From UHGV virus genome UHGV-0126763: DNA of 37,920 nucleotides, one strand, 5' to 3'. The stretch comes from a virus. The number at the start of each line of letters is the position of its first letter. Position 1 is the first letter of the stretch. Positions 11,162 through 18,195 of this stretch are shown here, in pieces. A program made the translations under genes and the position numbers. Under the pieces are notes generated by a model. The model searched no databases. It was not told the DNA's origin and worked only from the letters and a program-made list of their open reading frames with translations.

Positions 11162-11346
11162 ACGCCACAATTCAAACGATACCAGAGCTTCTTATCCAGA
11201 CACGAGGCAATCAGACCGAAGTGGCGAGGATGCTTTCCTGCGCAAGAGGAACAGTGCTCAAGTACAACCGAGACAGCAAAGGCGAGCGTCACGTAATAGT
11301 TAACGGCGTCCTGATGGTCAAACAGGGCAAGAGGGGTAGACCATGA
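11158..11346 (+). CDS. ninH: NinH-like small DNA-binding protein
   Basis: 62-aa ORF immediately upstream of Q, coupled to rusA stop. Confidence 0.5.
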   Translation: MNATIQTIPELLIQTRGNQTEVARMLSCARGTVLKYNRDSKGERHVIVNGVLMVKQGKRGRP

Positions 11347-11966
11347 GACTCGAAAGTGTAGCTAAATTTCATTCGCCAAAAAGCCCGATGATGAGCGACT
11401 CACCACGGGCTACGGCTTCTGACTCTCTTTCCGGTACTGATGTGATGGCTGCTATGGGGATGGCGCAATCACAAGCCGGATTCGGAATGGCTGCATTCTG
11501 CGGTAAGCATGAACTCAGCCAGAACGACAAACAAAAGGCTATCAACTATCTGATGCAATTTGCACACAAGGTATCGGGGAAATACCGTGGTGTGGCAAAG
11601 CTCGAAGGAAATACTAAGGCAAAGGTACTGCAAGTGCTCGCAACATTCGCTTATGCGGATTATTGCCGTAGTGCCGCGACGCCGGGCGCAAGATGCAGAG
11701 ATTGTCACGGTACAGGCCGTGCGGTTGATATAGCAAAAACAGAGCAGTGGGGGAGAGTTGTTGAGAAAGAATGCGGAAGATGCAAAGGTGTCGGCTATTC
11801 AAGAATGCCAGCAAGCGCCGCATATCGCGCTGTGACGATGCTAATCCCAAACCTTACCCAACCCACCTGGTCACGCACTGTTAAGCCGCTGTATGACGCT
11901 CTGGTGGTGCAATGCCACAAAGAAGAGTCAATCGCAGACAACATTTTGAATGCGGTCACACGTTAG
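11343..11966 (+). CDS. Q: Late gene antiterminator Q (lambda-type)
   Basis: 207 aa; MRLESVAKFHSPKSPMMSDSPRATASD and CRDCHGTGRAVD zinc motif match lambda Q as recalled; followed by PR'-like promoter. Confidence 0.9.
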   Translation: MRLESVAKFHSPKSPMMSDSPRATASDSLSGTDVMAAMGMAQSQAGFGMAAFCGKHELSQNDKQKAINYLMQFAHKVSGKYRGVAKLEGNTKAKVLQVLATFAYADYCRSAATPGARCRDCHGTGRAVDIAKTEQWGRVVEKECGRCKGVGYSRMPASAAYRAVTMLIPNLTQPTWSRTVKPLYDALVVQCHKEESIADNILNAVTR

Positions 11967-12399: not shown

Positions 12400-12723
12400 A
12401 TGAAGATGCCAGAAAAACATGACCTGTTAGCCGCCATTCTCGCGGCAAAGGAACAAGGCATCGGGGCAATCCTTGCGTTTGCAATGGCGTACCTTCGCGG
12501 CAGATATAATGGCGGTGCGTTTACAAAAACAGTAATCGACGCAACGATGTGCGCCATTATCGCCTGGTTCATTCGTGACCTTCTCGACTTCGCCGGACTA
12601 AGTAGCAATCTCGCTTATATAACGAGCGTGTTCATCGGCTACATCGGTACTGACTCGATTGGTTCGCTTATCAAACGCTTCGCTGCTAAAAAAGCCGGAG
12701 TAGAAGATGGTGGAAATCAATAA
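12400..12723 (+). CDS. S: Holin S (class I, dual-start MKM)
   Basis: 107 aa; [22 protein letters not shown] matches lambda S as recalled; upstream leader also lambda-like. Confidence 0.9.
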
Positions 12724-13183
12724 TCAACGTAAGGCGTTCCTCGATATGCTGGCGTGGTCAGAGGGAACTGATAACGGACGGCAGAAAACCAGAAATCATG
12801 GTTATGACGTCATTGTAGGAGGAGAGCTATTCACTGATTACTCCGATCACCCTCGCAAACTTGTCACGCTAAACCCCAAACTCAAATCAACAGCAGCCGG
12901 ACGTTACCAGCTTCTTTCCCGTTGGTGGGATGCCTATCGTAAGCAGCTTGGCCTGAAAGACTTCTCTCCGAAAAGCCAGGACGCTGTTGCGCTGCAGCAG
13001 ATTAAGGAGCGTGGCGCTTTACCGATGATTGATCGCGGTGATATCCGTCAGGCTATCGACCGTTGCAGCAATATCTGGGCTTCACTGCCGGGTGCTGGTT
13101 ATGGTCAGTTCGAGCATAAGGCAGACAGCCTGATTGCAAAATTCAAAGAAGCAGGCGGAACGGTCAGAGAGATTGAGGTATGA
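12707..13183 (+). CDS. R: Endolysin R (lambda-type lytic transglycosylase)
   Basis: 158 aa; [26 protein letters not shown] matches lambda R as recalled; overlaps S stop. Confidence 0.9.
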
Positions 13184-13617
13184 GTAGAGTAACCGCGATT
13201 ATCTCCGCTCTGGTTATCTGCATCATCGTCTGCCTGTCATGGGCTGTTAATCATTACCGTGATAATGCAATCGCCTACAAAGAGCAGCGCGATAAAGCCA
13301 CATCCATCATCGCTGATATGCAGAAGCGGCAACATGATGTAGCAGAACTCGACGCCAGATACACAAAGGAGCTTGCTGATGCTAACGCGACTATCGAAAG
13401 TCTCCGTGCTGATGTTTCTGCTGGTCGTAAGCGCCTGCAAGTCGCCGCCACCTGTACAAAGTCAACGACCGGAGCCAGCAGCATGGGCGATGGAGAAAGC
13501 CCAAGACTTACAGCAGATGCTGAACTCAATTATTACCGTCTCCGAAGTGGAATCGACAAGATAACCGCGCAGGTTAACTATCTGCAGGAATACATCAGGA
13601 CGCAATGCCTGAAATGA
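13180..13617 (+). CDS. Rz: Spanin inner-membrane subunit Rz
   Basis: 145 aa; N-terminal [25 protein letters not shown] as in lambda Rz; central and C-terminal parts diverge. Confidence 0.8.
13373..13564 (+). CDS. Rz1: Spanin outer-membrane lipoprotein Rz1 (embedded in Rz, +1 frame)
   Basis: Signal peptide with lipobox-like VVSAC then proline-rich [13 protein letters not shown]; wholly inside Rz in another frame. Confidence 0.65.
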
Positions 13618-13653
13618 TCGGGCGATGAAAACCAAAAAAAACAGGAGCAATAC

Positions 13654-13929
13654 ATGACTAAGCTTTATCACCGCATCTCAACTTTTCTCTCTGGTTGCTG
13701 GGCGTTTATCACGTCTATTTCGTTCGCCATCTTTAGTTTCGGTAGCACAGCGTGCTCGCTTAGTCGGGGTCTGTGGCGTGCTATTTCAGCACTAGCGCCG
13801 AAATTTTTACCTGAAAAGGCTGTTTGGCGAATTGTAGAGCGAATGTGTAGTGAGAGCGTTCGCGAGAAGATTAACGTATTTGGACGTCATCCTCGAAATA
13901 CAGGCGCATTGTGCAGTCCGTTACTGTAG
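13654..13929 (+). CDS. Questionable hypothetical ORF after lysis genes
   Basis: 91-aa ORF with AGGAG RBS, but Cys/Ser/Trp-rich composition looks weakly protein-like; may be non-coding. Confidence 0.25.
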   Translation: MTKLYHRISTFLSGCWAFITSISFAIFSFGSTACSLSRGLWRAISALAPKFLPEKAVWRIVERMCSESVREKINVFGRHPRNTGALCSPLL

Positions 13930-14291
13930 TCATTACAAAGCCCATCTACGGGTGGGCTTGATAATGAAACCGGAATTTATTCTGGGCAACCAGTTACGGC
14001 AGTGCCGCGAAACAACCCAAGCCAGAAAGTGGGGAAATAACACTGGCAGCCACTGAAAGATGAACCTCCAGCCTTATGGCAAAAAAGATTCTTTGTGGTG
14101 GCGGACTGATGGAAAGACATCGGTTATTGCAGAGACCATTCAATGAGTGGTCTCGACAATGGCTTATACCCTACACGGGATAACTTAACTGATATCCCCA
14201 CAAGCGGATAAAGAGGTCCCTCAATGTCAGGAATCTACTTTTAGTCCTAGTAATGATGAACTAGATATCAGTTGAGTCGCTTGGGTGGTGA

Positions 14292-14528
14292 TTACGATTC
14301 TGCTTCAAACTCAGAAATTAGTTGATGAACACGTTCAGTATATGATGGGTTAGAACCTAGAAACTCTTCCACTGTCTGAATGGTTTCATCACCCTCCCAT
14401 TCAAAATGGCTCACAGGTGACGAATGACCAGCCCTGACTTGGTAGGAGCCATTGTCCAATTTGTCCAGGAATATATAAGTTTCATTATCATGACCTGTAT
14501 TTCGGTAAAAAATTTGCTTTGAGTTCAT
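14292..14528 (-). CDS. Small acidic hypothetical protein, opposite-strand moron between lysis and packaging
   Basis: 78 aa, ATG with AGGA RBS 9 nt upstream, antisense to the late operon; start only 24 bp from the divergent terS start. Confidence 0.5.
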   Translation of the reverse strand: MNSKQIFYRNTGHDNETYIFLDKLDNGSYQVRAGHSSPVSHFEWEGDETIQTVEEFLGSNPSYTERVHQLISEFEAES

Positions 14529-14552
14529 TAAAGAAATCCTCTAGAGAAAACT

Positions 14553-15104
14553 ATGGCACTCACCGACAAACAAGAGATGTTCTGTCGCGAGTACCTCATC
14601 GATTTAAACGCCACACAAGCGGCTATTCGGGCGGGGTACAGCGCAAAGACAGCTAACCGTACCGCATCCGAAAACCTGTCAAAACCTGACATACAATTCA
14701 GAATCGCCGAACTGAAAGCGCAACGCAATGATCTTGTTGGTATTAATGCAGAATATGTACTTAATCGCCTTATTGAAATCGACCAGATGGATGTGCTCGA
14801 CATTCTCCTGCAAAACGGTGAGCTAAAGCCCATTAAAGACTGGCCTAAGGTATGGCGCACAACGCTATCAGGAATGGATGTCGTGGAGATAGTATCCGCA
14901 GATAGCGCCGCACTTCTGAAGAAAATCAAATGGCCTGATAAGGTTAAAAACCTTGAGTTGCTCGGGCGTCATGTTTCTGTTCAGGCGTTTAAAGACAATG
15001 TCAAAAATGAAGTGACTGGTGCTGACGGAGGACCAGTCAGAACAGAAATTACCAACTTAACGCCGGAGCAGGCTGCAGAAGCGTATAAAAAAATGATGGG
15101 CTAA
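14553..15104 (+). CDS. Terminase small subunit
   Basis: 183 aa; N-terminal [29 protein letters not shown] typical of P27-family small terminases as recalled. Confidence 0.75.
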
Positions 15105-15106
15105 GT

Positions 15107-16729
15107 ATGCCGTTACCATTTCCCTTCGATTTTAAACATCCTGATTACCAGATGGTTTTTGAATGGCGGATGGAACGCTTACAGCGCATTCGCCAGAACC
15201 CTGAAATATTGCCAGCACTAAAACAGTTTTACCGAACCAACCCGGCTCAGTTCATCATCGACTGGGGCATGACAACGGACCCGCGTAATATTGATTATGG
15301 CCTGCCGGTGACCATTCCGTTTTTACTCTTCCCTAAGCAGGAGGAGTGGATCCACTGGATTATGGAACGCTGGGGCAATCGGGAGAATGGTATTACCGAA
15401 AAATCCCGTGAAATGGGGCTCAGTTGGACCGCGATCGGACTGGCATGTTCGCTTTGTCTCTTCAACAAAGAAATGGTTATCGGTTTCGGCTCCCGTAAAG
15501 AGGAATACGTCGACAGCACCGGTGACCCGAAAGCATTGTTCTGGAAGGCGCGCAAGTTCGTGGAAACACTACCTGTAGAGTTTCGCGGTTCGTGGAGCGA
15601 GAAGAAGCACGCGCCATATATGCGTGTTGAGTTTCCTGATACTGGTGCCGTTATCAAAGGCGAGGCTGGCGATAATATTGGTCGTGGTGACCGTACCACG
15701 CTTTATCTGGTTGATGAGGCTGCATTCCTTCAGCGTCCTCTGCTGATTGATGCGGCGTTGTCACAAACGACGCGTTGCCGTATCGACCTGAGTTCAGTTA
15801 ACGGCATGGCTAACCCGTTCGCTCAGAAGCGTCATGGCGGGAAGATACCGGTATTCACATTCCACTGGCGGGATGATCCTCGCAAGGATGAAGAGTGGTA
15901 TCGCAGGGAATGCGAGAAAATCGATAATCCGGTGGTGGTGGCACAGGAACTTGATCTGAACTACAGCGCATCAGCGGAAGGCGTCCTGATTCCATCCGAA
16001 TGGGTACAGGCTGCCGTTGATGCGCATATCAAACTTGGTATCCAGCCAACAGGCAAACGACTTGGCGCGATGGATGTCGCTGATGAAGGCAGGGACAAAA
16101 ATGCATTTTCCACCCGTCATGGCTTCCTCCTGGAAAATGTGCGGGAATGGTCCGGTGTGGGCAGCGACATTTATCAGTCCGTCGAGAAGGTCTTCGGTTT
16201 TTGCGAACAGGACAACCTCGAAGAGTTTCGCTTTGACGAGGACGGGTTGGGCGCTGGCGTTCGCGGCGATGCACGCGCTATCAACGAACTGCGTAACGCT
16301 GCGCGCCGACCGTCAATACTCGCCACACCGTTTCGAGGTAGTGGCGCGGTATTTGATCCGGACGACGAAGCGGTGCGCGGTGACAACGGACAGGCCGCCC
16401 GCCTGAACAAGGACTTCTTCGCTAACGCCAAAGCCCAGAGCTGGTGGCGGTTACGTAAACTTTTTCAGAATACCTGGCGCGCCGTGGTTGAAGGTATGGC
16501 TTACAACCCGGACGAAATCATCTCAATCAGCAGTAGCATGGCACTCAAAGATAAACTCATCATCGAGCTTTCGCAGCCGACCTATTCCATTAATGGTGTG
16601 GGAAAAATCGTTATTGATAAACAGCCTGACGGCACCAAGTCGCCGAACCTCGCCGACTCGGTGATGATCAGCTACGCGCCAATGAATTCAGCCCTGAACA
16701 TCTGGGAGCTGCTAGGGAGACAGGCCTGA
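15107..16729 (+). CDS. Terminase large subunit
   Basis: 540 aa; Walker A-like [11 protein letters not shown] (compare lambda gpA KSARVGYS) and Walker B-like LYLVDEAAF; immediately after small subunit. Confidence 0.8.
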
Positions 16730-18195
16730 TGGCACGAAACAAGCAAGCCTCTCAGCGAACGGCGCAGGCCACCGCTGATGGCTACGAGAACTTTGTCGCC
16801 CGCGTGGGGATGCAGACGCCTAACCAGCATTCAGCATCGACCTACCGGGCGAACTTCACCAGCCGCAACCGCATGCTGGTGGAATGGTCCTATCGTTCGT
16901 CCTGGATCATCGGCGAAGCGGTCGACGCTATCCCGGATGATATGACCCGCAAAGGCATTCGCATTACTTCGGAAATTGATGCAAAAGATCGCGGCATTCT
17001 CGAATCACAACTTGATGAGTTGCAGATCTGGGATGCGCTGAACGACGTGCTGAAATGGTCTCGCCTCTACGGCGGCGCGGTCGGCTTCATCATGATCGAG
17101 GGGCAGGCACCAATGACCCCGCTGCGGCTCGAAACCATTGGAGAAGGCAAGTTTAAGGGCATTCTCCCGCTCGACCGCTGGATGATTAACCCGGTCCTGA
17201 CCCGCCGCATTAAAGAGATGGGGCCAGATCTCGGCAAACCTGAGTTTTACGACGTGGTGACCACTGCAACGGGCATCCCGGCCTGGCGCATCCATCACAG
17301 CCGCCTGATTCGCTTCGATGGCGTCACGCTACCATTCCAGCAGAAGATGACCGAAAACGAATGGGGAATGTCGGTTGTAGAGCGTATCTGGGATCGGCTT
17401 ACTGCGTTCGATAGCGCTACTGTCGGCGCGGCGCAGCTGGTCTATAAAGCGCATCTGCGTACCTATAGCGTGGAGAAGTTGCGCGAGCTTATCGCGCTTG
17501 GAGGCCCGGCGTTCGAAGCGTTGCTGAAGAACATCGACCTGATCCGCCAGTTCCAGAGCAATGAAGGTATGACGATCATGGACTCGCGGGATAAGTTCGA
17601 AACCCACCAGTACAGCTTCAGCGGTCTGGATGACATTCTTTCGCAGTTCGCTGAGCAGATCAGCGGTGCCGTTGGTATCCCGCTGGTGCGACTGTTCGGT
17701 CAATCCCCGAAAGGCTTCTCTACTGGTGACGCAGACCTCGCCAACTATTACGACCGGGTGAGCTCATTGCAGGAGCGCCGCTTACGGATGCCGATGCGCC
17801 GGATACTGGACATTATGCACCGCTCGGAACTCGGTAAGCCGCTGCCGGACGATTTCACGTTTGAGTTTAACCCGCTCTGGCAAATGTCTGATGTCGATCG
17901 CTCAACGGTGGCGTTAAACACTACCAACGCAATCAGTACGGCGCTGGGTGATGGTCTGATGACACTGAAAGCCGCTATGACCGATTTGCGCGAAAATTCT
18001 GACGTAACCGGCATCGGGGCATCCATTACCGACGAGGACATAGAGAATGCCGAAGACGAAGCGCCGCCAGGCATCGGCGAACTTGGCGACAAACCGCCAG
18101 AGTCGCCAGGCGGAGATCCGATATCGAACGAGCCTACGGCAGATAGCGCGGGCGGTCGGGGATATCGTAAATGGGCGCTACGATGGTTCAAATGA
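16729..18195 (+). CDS. Portal protein
   Basis: 488 aa, follows terminase with ATGA overlap, acidic low-complexity C-terminus. Confidence 0.75.
   Translation: MARNKQASQRTAQATADGYENFVARVGMQTPNQHSASTYRANFTSRNRMLVEWSYRSSWIIGEAVDAIPDDMTRKGIRITSEIDAKDRGILESQLDELQIWDALNDVLKWSRLYGGAVGFIMIEGQAPMTPLRLETIGEGKFKGILPLDRWMINPVLTRRIKEMGPDLGKPEFYDVVTTATGIPAWRIHHSRLIRFDGVTLPFQQKMTENEWGMSVVERIWDRLTAFDSATVGAAQLVYKAHLRTYSVEKLRELIALGGPAFEALLKNIDLIRQFQSNEGMTIMDSRDKFETHQYSFSGLDDILSQFAEQISGAVGIPLVRLFGQSPKGFSTGDADLANYYDRVSSLQERRLRMPMRRILDIMHRSELGKPLPDDFTFEFNPLWQMSDVDRSTVALNTTNAISTALGDGLMTLKAAMTDLRENSDVTGIGASITDEDIENAEDEAPPGIGELGDKPPESPGGDPISNEPTADSAGGRGYRKWALRWFK

Follow-up and report, generated by a model that had tools for sequence, protein, structure and literature searches.

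A rare, uncharacterised moron-type gene in the cargo gap between the lysis genes and terS of a lambdoid E. coli prophage

Introduction

A moron, in the definition of Hendrix and Juhala, is an accessory gene whose insertion separates two genes that are neighbours in related phages. The gap between the lysis genes and the terminase genes holds accessory genes in several described phages. In lambda, bor, a reverse-strand lysogenic-conversion gene that encodes an outer-membrane lipoprotein, lies between Rz and cos. Here, we describe a small minus-strand gene in the corresponding gap, between Rz and terS, of UHGV-0126763. The DNA analysed is the whole 37,920-nucleotide stretch of this virus genome (the window), which is a lambdoid E. 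coli prophage. E. coli PD7 and GZ2408P match this prophage at 100%.

The closest described system is the pid locus of P22. The pid insert was published as P22 40357-40998 (PMC3573128, Cenens et al. 2013), and the term moron was applied to it in that work. The promoter, Ppid, has been mapped: its -10 box, AATCCT, occupies the positions 181-186 nt ahead of the ATG of pid, and the transcription start site (TSS) is P22 40880, giving a 174-nt leader that is processed (PMC8835761, Wolput et al. 2022). The word "terminase" occurs in neither PMC3573128 nor PMC8835761. In LT-II enterotoxin loci, too, cargo occupies this gap, directly downstream of a phage lysis gene and upstream of a small-terminase gene (PMC3252337).

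The small gene is real and its family is rare

We found that the minus-strand open reading frame (ORF) at 14292-14528 is a real gene. In comparisons with eight diverged DNA homologues, the proportion of synonymous differences (pS) was 0.67-0.95, which is saturated, versus 0.09-0.33 for nonsynonymous differences (pN). The ratio of the corresponding rates (dN/dS) was mostly 0.05-0.14 among the homologue pairs for which it was computable, with a maximum of 0.33. The Shine-Dalgarno (SD) sequence of the window copy is GAGGA, at 14541-14537 and 8 nt from the ATG, and no homologue lacks an SD even though the sequence of the spacer has diverged. The features of this part of the window are:

13926-14198: block shared by HK97-like phages, P22-like phages and many E. 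coli prophages, with no confirmed gene
14199-14291, minus strand: cargo-specific 3' flank of the small gene, 43% GC
14292-14528, minus strand: small gene for an acidic protein of 78 aa, ATG start
14529-14552: divergent spacer of 24 bp with the palindrome CTCTAGAG
14553-15104, plus strand: terS (Pfam Terminase_2, PF03592, E 7e-40), the right anchor of the slot

A previous reading of the window from its letters alone (the sequence-only reading) had picked out this ORF, with its start 24 bp from the terS ATG and divergent from it, and had proposed homology searches and structure prediction for its product. Both were done, and with the SD they bear the gene out: it is under purifying selection, AlphaFold2 gives a confident fold (below), and the protein belongs to no known family. 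The coordinates of this gene hold, and every other element that the reading listed in the gap was likewise found where it had been placed.

The family is rare, clearly selected and outside known families. A homologue search returned 13 clusters among 5.8 billion sequences, and a profile search returned 16 representatives among 1.84 billion. Sixteen family members, down to 31% identity, keep the length and the pattern ExYIFLD...VRxGxS...EEF. The 78-aa protein had no tblastn match at E <= 1 in 50,697 phage records, P22 and BTP1 included, and no family in Pfam (E <= 1), PHROG, NCBIfam or PADLOC; a scan of genome contigs yielded no confirmed relative. PGAP names the product hypothetical protein (WP_023565728 / WP_047672399). 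The gene is dispensable, and some genomes hold split or frameshifted copies. In the P22-like prophages L005 (5498-6835), L006 and L007, an IS3-family element (HTH_Tnp_1 and rve) splits the gene after about codon 32, and frameshifted and truncated copies exist as well (P0010, P0011).

The small gene lies in a variable cargo slot

The gap between Rz and terS is a mosaic. It measures 935 bp (Rz ends at 13617 and terS starts at 14553), in line with the ~930 bp of the sequence-only reading, which had taken it for an accessory region. Our results support that view, and the position equals that of lambda bor. From 13400 onward, the sequence shares 98.5% identity with phages HK140 and N7, up to 14198, where this match ends. 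The left part of the gap, 13618-14198, matches 2,327 of 5,426 complete E. coli genomes; these 580 bp are a module common to HK97-like cos phages that have a different terminase. The right part, 14199-14552, had no counterpart by blastn or tblastn in the 50,697 phage records and is present in 12 of the 5,426 genomes. The explanation that we favor, with moderate confidence when it is taken whole and together with the model of expression given below, is that the gap is a two-part accessory region, with a shared module on the left and a single-gene cargo cassette on the right.

The slot 5' of the Terminase_2 terS is a variable cargo slot. The product of terS is a member of Terminase_2 (137.3 bits against PF03592, gathering cut-off 26.1). 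Its 5' end is shared by 203 E. coli genomes, and 12 of the 203 have the small gene. In BL21 (L036, 1633-2181), E. coli B and the enteropathogenic E. coli (EPEC) strain E2348/69 (L037), this slot is occupied by an unrelated reverse ORFan of 182 aa (WP_000762846.1), whose start is 19 bp from that of terS. Phage ES2 has a reverse gene of 144 aa, 20 bp from terS, and the locus L026 has a DUF6173 gene. There is no annotated gene in the slot of STEC1587, and in phage vB_EcoM-606R2, whose TerL is 99.3% identical, merely 61 bp separate Rz from terS. None of the cargo proteins examined matches a known family. That is, relatives hold another insert at this place or none, as the definition of a moron calls for. 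The base composition of the small gene (39.2% GC) is also unlike that of the neighbouring genes (46-53%). We conclude that it is an ordinary moron-type accessory gene, of a rare and uncharacterised family, in a recognised cargo gap.

The small gene is not tied to one terminase type. In most loci, it diverges from a Terminase_2 terS at a distance of 24-27 bp, and this holds across four head and terminase sets: the DUF1073 portal (the window), the P22 portal with Terminase_3, Phage_portal_3 with Mu_F, and DUF4055 with Terminase_6C. Homology to the window begins at the stop codon of the small gene and breaks off at ~14625-14950. In L027, the working TerS is of the Sf6 type and only a ~78-nt Terminase_2 remnant lies upstream of the small gene, which keeps its reverse orientation between the lysis genes and TerS. 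In L026, the gene is 2.2 kb from the real terS and is accompanied by a decayed remnant. A 46%-identical homologue (P0018; L045, 5001-5243) is reversed between an Rz-like gene and Nu1 of a lambda-type (Nu1/gpA/gpW) cos prophage, which is the position of bor. Two further homologues are in non-phage chromosomal islands.

A 40-aa DNA_pol3_theta-like gene adjoins the homologue in L045.

The right anchor of the slot is itself mosaic. The N-terminal two-thirds of TerS (~120-130 residues) are common to different TerL and portal sets (L005/L009/L011), and the C-terminal 65 residues go with TerL. These 65 residues are identical to those of 606R2 (L040, 2026-2598), whose N-terminal domain is far more diverged (65% identity for TerS overall). 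When 13 terS genes are aligned, the first 30 aa of TerS do not vary within the enterobacterial relatives. The simplest explanation would be that this conserved 5' stretch and the block at 13926-14198 serve as homology anchors for exchange of the cassette. Such exchange would leave remnants of terS as scars, as may have happened in P22, L027, L004 and L026.

We also considered the near-identical first ~75 nt of terS as a conserved operator or promoter of the cargo and rejected this as unproven. The invariance is at the level of the protein: synonymous changes occur in this stretch, and there are many in the Morganella and Pseudomonas relatives. A rare Arg codon (AGA/AGG) lies under the putative -10 in 11 of the 13 terS genes, which is suggestive, yet terS uses AGA elsewhere. 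No extra constraint at the nucleotide level could be demonstrated in the 5' stretch of terS.

The locus is homologous to the pid locus

We compared the window with the pid loci of P22 (BK000583; L029, 1500-1746) and BTP1 (L028). By alignment, the window locus is homologous to the pid locus, and the window has its intact form. P22 40180-40356 matches window 13996-14170, and this match ends exactly at the published start of the pid insert. On the other side, the first 250 nt of terS (14554-14803) match P22 40745-40990 at 73.6%. pid is on the minus strand between these two matches, as annotated in BTP1. The published insert is the exact interval from the end of the shared block to the end of the terS-like remnant, and this coincidence indicates that P22 carries a truncated Terminase_2 terS beside pid. 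The start codon of the remnant is now GTG, and the working TerS of P22 is gp3. The sequence of Ppid is TTGCTT-17-AATCCT, and its activity is raised by the substitutions C-183A and C-182A. The published positions of Ppid and its TSS were confirmed, and they are on the antisense strand of the terS remnant.

A candidate promoter within terS

The small gene reads against the late operon, so it cannot be expressed from pR' and needs a promoter of its own. The positional homologue of Ppid is:

14700-14728, minus strand: predicted promoter of the small gene, within terS codons 50-59

This sequence has a -35 box TTGCGT (14728-14723), a 17-nt spacer and a -10 box GATTCT (14705-14700). With a position weight matrix (PWM), it and the mapped P22 Ppid have the same score, 4.17, and each ranks 5 of 1730 in its upstream region. 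Neither reaches the threshold of the consensus scan, which fits the description of Ppid as weak (PMC8835761). The sequence-only reading had held that the promoter of the small gene must overlap terS. A promoter inside terS is the best-supported reading and the most likely one, given the homology with the mapped Ppid in a terS remnant (PMC8835761); the exact TSS is uncertain. We propose that a weak constitutive sigma-70 promoter antisense to terS codons 50-59 drives the small gene. By analogy with pid, the TSS would be at ~14693 and the 5' untranslated region, ~165 nt long, would be antisense to the start of terS. Three features suggest expression in the prophage or carrier state: the gene is read in opposition to the late operon, it has a cargo signature, and pid provides a precedent. 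The gene would be expressed there outside the programme of lysis and packaging.

Several observations weigh against this proposal. A scan of the minus strand found no consensus sigma-70 promoter and no intrinsic terminator, and the equivalent of Ppid matches consensus at only 3/6 and 3/6 positions. In P22, Ppid also needs sequence further upstream (PMC8835761), which is non-homologous in the window. The candidate TTGACA-15-TACGGT at 14682-14656 outscores the equivalent of Ppid, and this is what makes the TSS uncertain. In L027, L004 and L026, homology ends at ~14625, short of the equivalent of Ppid, so these copies would use another promoter or upstream co-transcription. In addition, there is no conserved partner gene; each locus has different genes downstream of the small gene (among them YfbU and a HEPN-like match that is weak and below threshold).

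The spacer between the two genes serves both of them. The halves of the palindrome CTCTAGAG form the SD regions of the small gene (minus strand, GAGGA) and of terS (plus strand, a weak SD). An extended -10-like sequence, TGcCATAGT (14558-14550, minus strand), overlaps the terS ATG; the CATAGT candidate scores only 2.47 and ranks 13. Promoter scans of three distant loci gave nothing above chance.

Predicted properties of the 78-aa protein

The 78-aa protein has a pI of 4.6 and a net charge of ~-9, and most of its relatives are acidic too. There is no N-terminal hydrophobic segment, signal peptide or lipobox in its sequence, and the product is predicted to be a soluble, cytoplasmic acidic protein. 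AlphaFold2 gave a model of four beta strands followed by two helices, with a predicted local distance difference test score (pLDDT) of 84.4 and a predicted template modeling score (pTM) of 0.69. With low confidence, we assign the modeled fold to a PUR/Whirly/PC4/MAM33-like class (comparators: Borrelia Pur-alpha 3N8B, Drosophila Pur-alpha 3K44, MRP1/2 2GIA, BPSL1147 5A4N and Mam33 3QV0). The structural matches of the model, to acidic proteins of the MAM33/p32 type and to Lockin, which binds 3'cADPR, are weak; the one to Lockin has a template modeling (TM) score of ~0.5 and an E of 0.3. When PDB sequences were searched with a profile, no match fell below E 0.27 and none was to PUR or PC4. Neither this search nor Pfam, which at E <= 1 gave no PUR-alpha, DUF3276 or PC4 family, relates the protein to this class at the level of sequence.

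Members of the PUR/Whirly class that bind nucleic acid are basic, in contrast to the 78-aa protein, and with its charge we consider binding of single-stranded nucleic acid doubtful. Binding to another macromolecule is, in our view, its most likely mode of action. As a low-confidence guess, it might oligomerise and, in that form, bind a basic nucleic-acid-binding protein, from either the host or a competing phage, and so titrate it. The precedent for titration would be Pid and the DgoR-controlled dgo operon.

The left part of the gap

Besides the shared block, this part contains:

13654-13929, plus strand: ORF for a basic protein of 91 aa (pI 10.2, hydrophobic N-terminus), the same as HK140 gp68 and phrog_34701
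13930-13967: two-tier hairpin of 6+9 bp with a 4-nt loop, beginning one base past the stop of the 91-aa ORF

The 91-aa ORF is probably a real gene of the late operon, judging from its sequence conservation. The sequence-only reading had called it questionable, a label that our comparisons do not uphold. It matches phrog_34701 over its full length (E 7e-57). The protein is 100% identical in phages HK140 and N7, and HK140 gp68 is likewise directly after Rz. An orthologue of equal length and 61.5% identity, also after Rz, is present in Klebsiella phage ST15-VIM1phi2.1 (L031, 2501-2776). In this one diverged pair, in-frame pS was 0.72 versus a pN of 0.25. The differences by codon position were 29/20/50, an excess at third positions, and the other two frames showed the opposite. 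The SD AGGAG is 7 nt upstream of the ORF. PGAP leaves it uncalled in most E. coli genomes.

A lipobox-like L/I-S-G/A-C occurs at residues 12-15 of both the 91-aa protein and its Klebsiella orthologue, after a short, positively charged N-terminus. From these features, the late operon might encode a small lipoprotein or membrane protein here.

The hairpin is larger and stronger than the one that had been noticed at ~13938-13959. Its folding free energy is -21.8 kcal/mol on the plus strand and -17.6 on the minus strand (z -5.0 and -4.0), and 0 of 200 shuffled sequences fold as stably. Neither strand has a U-tract beside it, so it does not qualify as a canonical intrinsic terminator, and the terminator scan is also silent on it.

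The shared block at 13926-14198 would, from its distribution, be the left homology anchor of the cargo slot. It matches 192 phage records, HK97-like and P22-like phages among them, and prophages that have a KilA-N gene after Rz rejoin the sequence of the window at 13926.

More hairpins are found within the block at 14054-14160 on the minus strand, for example GAGACCA-N8-TGGTCTC at ~14133-14154. An annotated minus-strand terminator of Salmonella phage L (MW013502) occupies the homologous position, roughly window 14054-14098. By analogy, the hairpins or terminator in this block might end the transcript of the small gene. The 3' flank between the block and the small gene (14199-14291) had no match in the phage collection and no canonical terminator, and it folds no better than shuffled sequence (z -1.5).

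Packaging site and late genes

The sequence-only reading had stated that the gap lacks both the cos sequence of lambda and a Bor-like lipoprotein, and both absences were confirmed. The cohesive end of lambda, GGGCGGCGACCT, searched with <=2 mismatches, had no match in 13618-14552 and five matches window-wide, which is not above chance. Lambda-type cos phages have a Nu1/gpA terminase, in contrast to the Terminase_2 type of the window. No ORF of the gap had a Pfam match to Bor or anything else at E <= 1.

The further suggestion, that the packaging site probably lies in the gap, fared less well. Nothing places a packaging site there: cos phages with other terminases have the left part as well, and the cargo on the right is optional (12/203). 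In phages with related small terminases, such as P22 and SPP1, pac sites lie in or next to terS. By analogy, the likelier place for a pac site, should one exist, is within or at the start of terS. The 61-bp gap of 606R2 does not decide where pac lies, since the N-terminal domain of its TerS differs.

There was no Rfam match in the gap at E <= 1 and none window-wide at gathering scores, and no tRNAs were found in the window. The late genes around the gap are:

11343-11966: Q
12400-12723: holin
12707-13183: endolysin
13180-13617, plus strand: Rz (i-spanin; Pfam Phage_lysis, E 6e-36), which closes the lysis cassette and bounds the gap on the left
~13373-13564, inside Rz: Rz1-like lipoprotein ORF, lipobox VVSAC
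15107-16729: terL, downstream of terS
16729-18195: portal (DUF1073/HI1409-type), downstream of terL

At the portal (DUF1073) position in BL21 (L036, 4377-4651), PGAP calls a truncated gene "anti-CBASS protein Acb1 family protein". Its intact homologues in the window and in E2348/69 are named DUF1073, and the call is perhaps a quirk of annotation.

Discussion

Our results indicate that the right part of the gap holds a real gene, and the alternatives have to be weighed against this. That the gap is solely a packaging-recognition site, with the minus-strand ORF a chance frame, draws on the analogy with the pac sites of P22 and SPP1. This is hardly credible in view of the strong coding signal and the confident fold. 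It is contradicted by the pattern of substitutions, by the absence of the cassette from most prophages with the same terS 5' end, and by homologues found away from any terminase. It is also possible that the protein is coupled to the Terminase_2 TerS, for example as a modulator or inhibitor of TerS or of pac recognition, like the TerS-binding proteins of satellites. Its divergent position, 24-27 bp from terS in phages with four TerL and portal sets, would fit such a role, as would the ~75 nt of terS 5' remnant that copies elsewhere retain. We consider it very unlikely, however. The gene is in only 12 of the 203 E. coli genomes with this terS 5' end, the slot of other phages has unrelated genes or none, and homologues occur beside TerS of the Sf6 and Nu1 types and in non-phage islands. 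Recombination at the 5' end of terS, which is invariant, accounts for the remnants, and the synonymous changes in this stretch give no sign of special constraint at the nucleotide level.

The main product could instead be the RNA: an antisense transcript over the terS ribosome-binding site (RBS) that silences leaky terS or hinders late transcription, with the ORF secondary. The predicted ~165-nt leader is fully complementary to the start region of terS, and the processed 174-nt leader of the pid mRNA in P22 lies over the same sequence (PMC8835761). Nevertheless, the ORF is under strong purifying selection and is kept in loci without terS or with only a remnant, and P22 keeps the arrangement though there is no functional terS opposite the leader. 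Different cargo genes in one slot also argue for the importance of the protein, and we regard the RNA as an improbable main product. Of the alternatives to our reading, the least improbable, though still unlikely, is that the protein is a decoy or sponge in defence or anti-defence, either a mimic of nucleic acid or a binder of a signalling molecule. It is small and very acidic (net charge ~-9), and most of the family is acidic too; it is carried by phages and other mobile elements; and the weak structural matches are to MAM33/p32-type proteins and Lockin. That same weakness counts against a decoy, as do the lack of a PADLOC match and of an adjoining defence gene, and a reverse orientation within the late region is more in keeping with prophage expression than with expression early in infection.

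We therefore return to the two-part accessory region with a single-gene cargo cassette. Taken alone, the small gene is one more uncharacterised accessory gene of a prophage, in a gap that elsewhere holds lambda bor, P22 pid and LT-II loci. The family recurs, reversed, between lysis and terminase genes of any terminase type, and this makes it a candidate for a function expressed in lysogens. A small new point is the origin of the pid promoter in terS: the promoter and the unusually long leader of pid are the antisense strand of a truncated Terminase_2 terS, which would explain where the odd transcription of pid came from. One prediction is that other reverse ORFans in the slot, including the 182-aa gene of BL21, E. 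coli B and E2348/69, are expressed likewise. A broader idea, which we see as a long shot, is that the slot is a dedicated expression platform. The promoter antisense to terS would drive any reverse ORFan that recombines in, the leader would couple the cargo to silencing of packaging in lysogens or carrier cells, and the 78-aa protein, acidic and PUR-like, would represent a new type of decoy, one that titrates either a host regulator or a DNA-binding protein of an incoming phage.

The small gene resembles lambda bor in being reversed in the gap between the lysis and terminase genes. Its product differs from the Bor lipoprotein: it has no lipobox, signal peptide or Pfam Bor match, and is acidic and predicted to be soluble. 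The genes of the LT-II loci are unrelated to the small gene and are not known as reverse-oriented single ORFans. The pid loci of P22 and BTP1 differ in several respects. The proteins are unrelated (no tblastn match at E <= 1 and no resemblance in the sequence of Pid), P22 holds only a dead, 250-nt remnant of terS whereas terS of the window is intact and in use, and pid has a canonical Rho-independent terminator whereas none was found for the small gene. The likeness is in the arrangement. Both proteins are small ORFans (86 aa for P22 Pid, 78 aa in the window), and the start codon of pid is 37 nt from the terS-type start, compared with 24 nt for the small gene. The flanks are homologous on both sides, and the mapped weak promoter and long leader of pid are antisense to terS sequence that is conserved in the window. 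Like the small gene, pid is reversed between the shared post-lysis block and the 5' end of a Terminase_2 terS.

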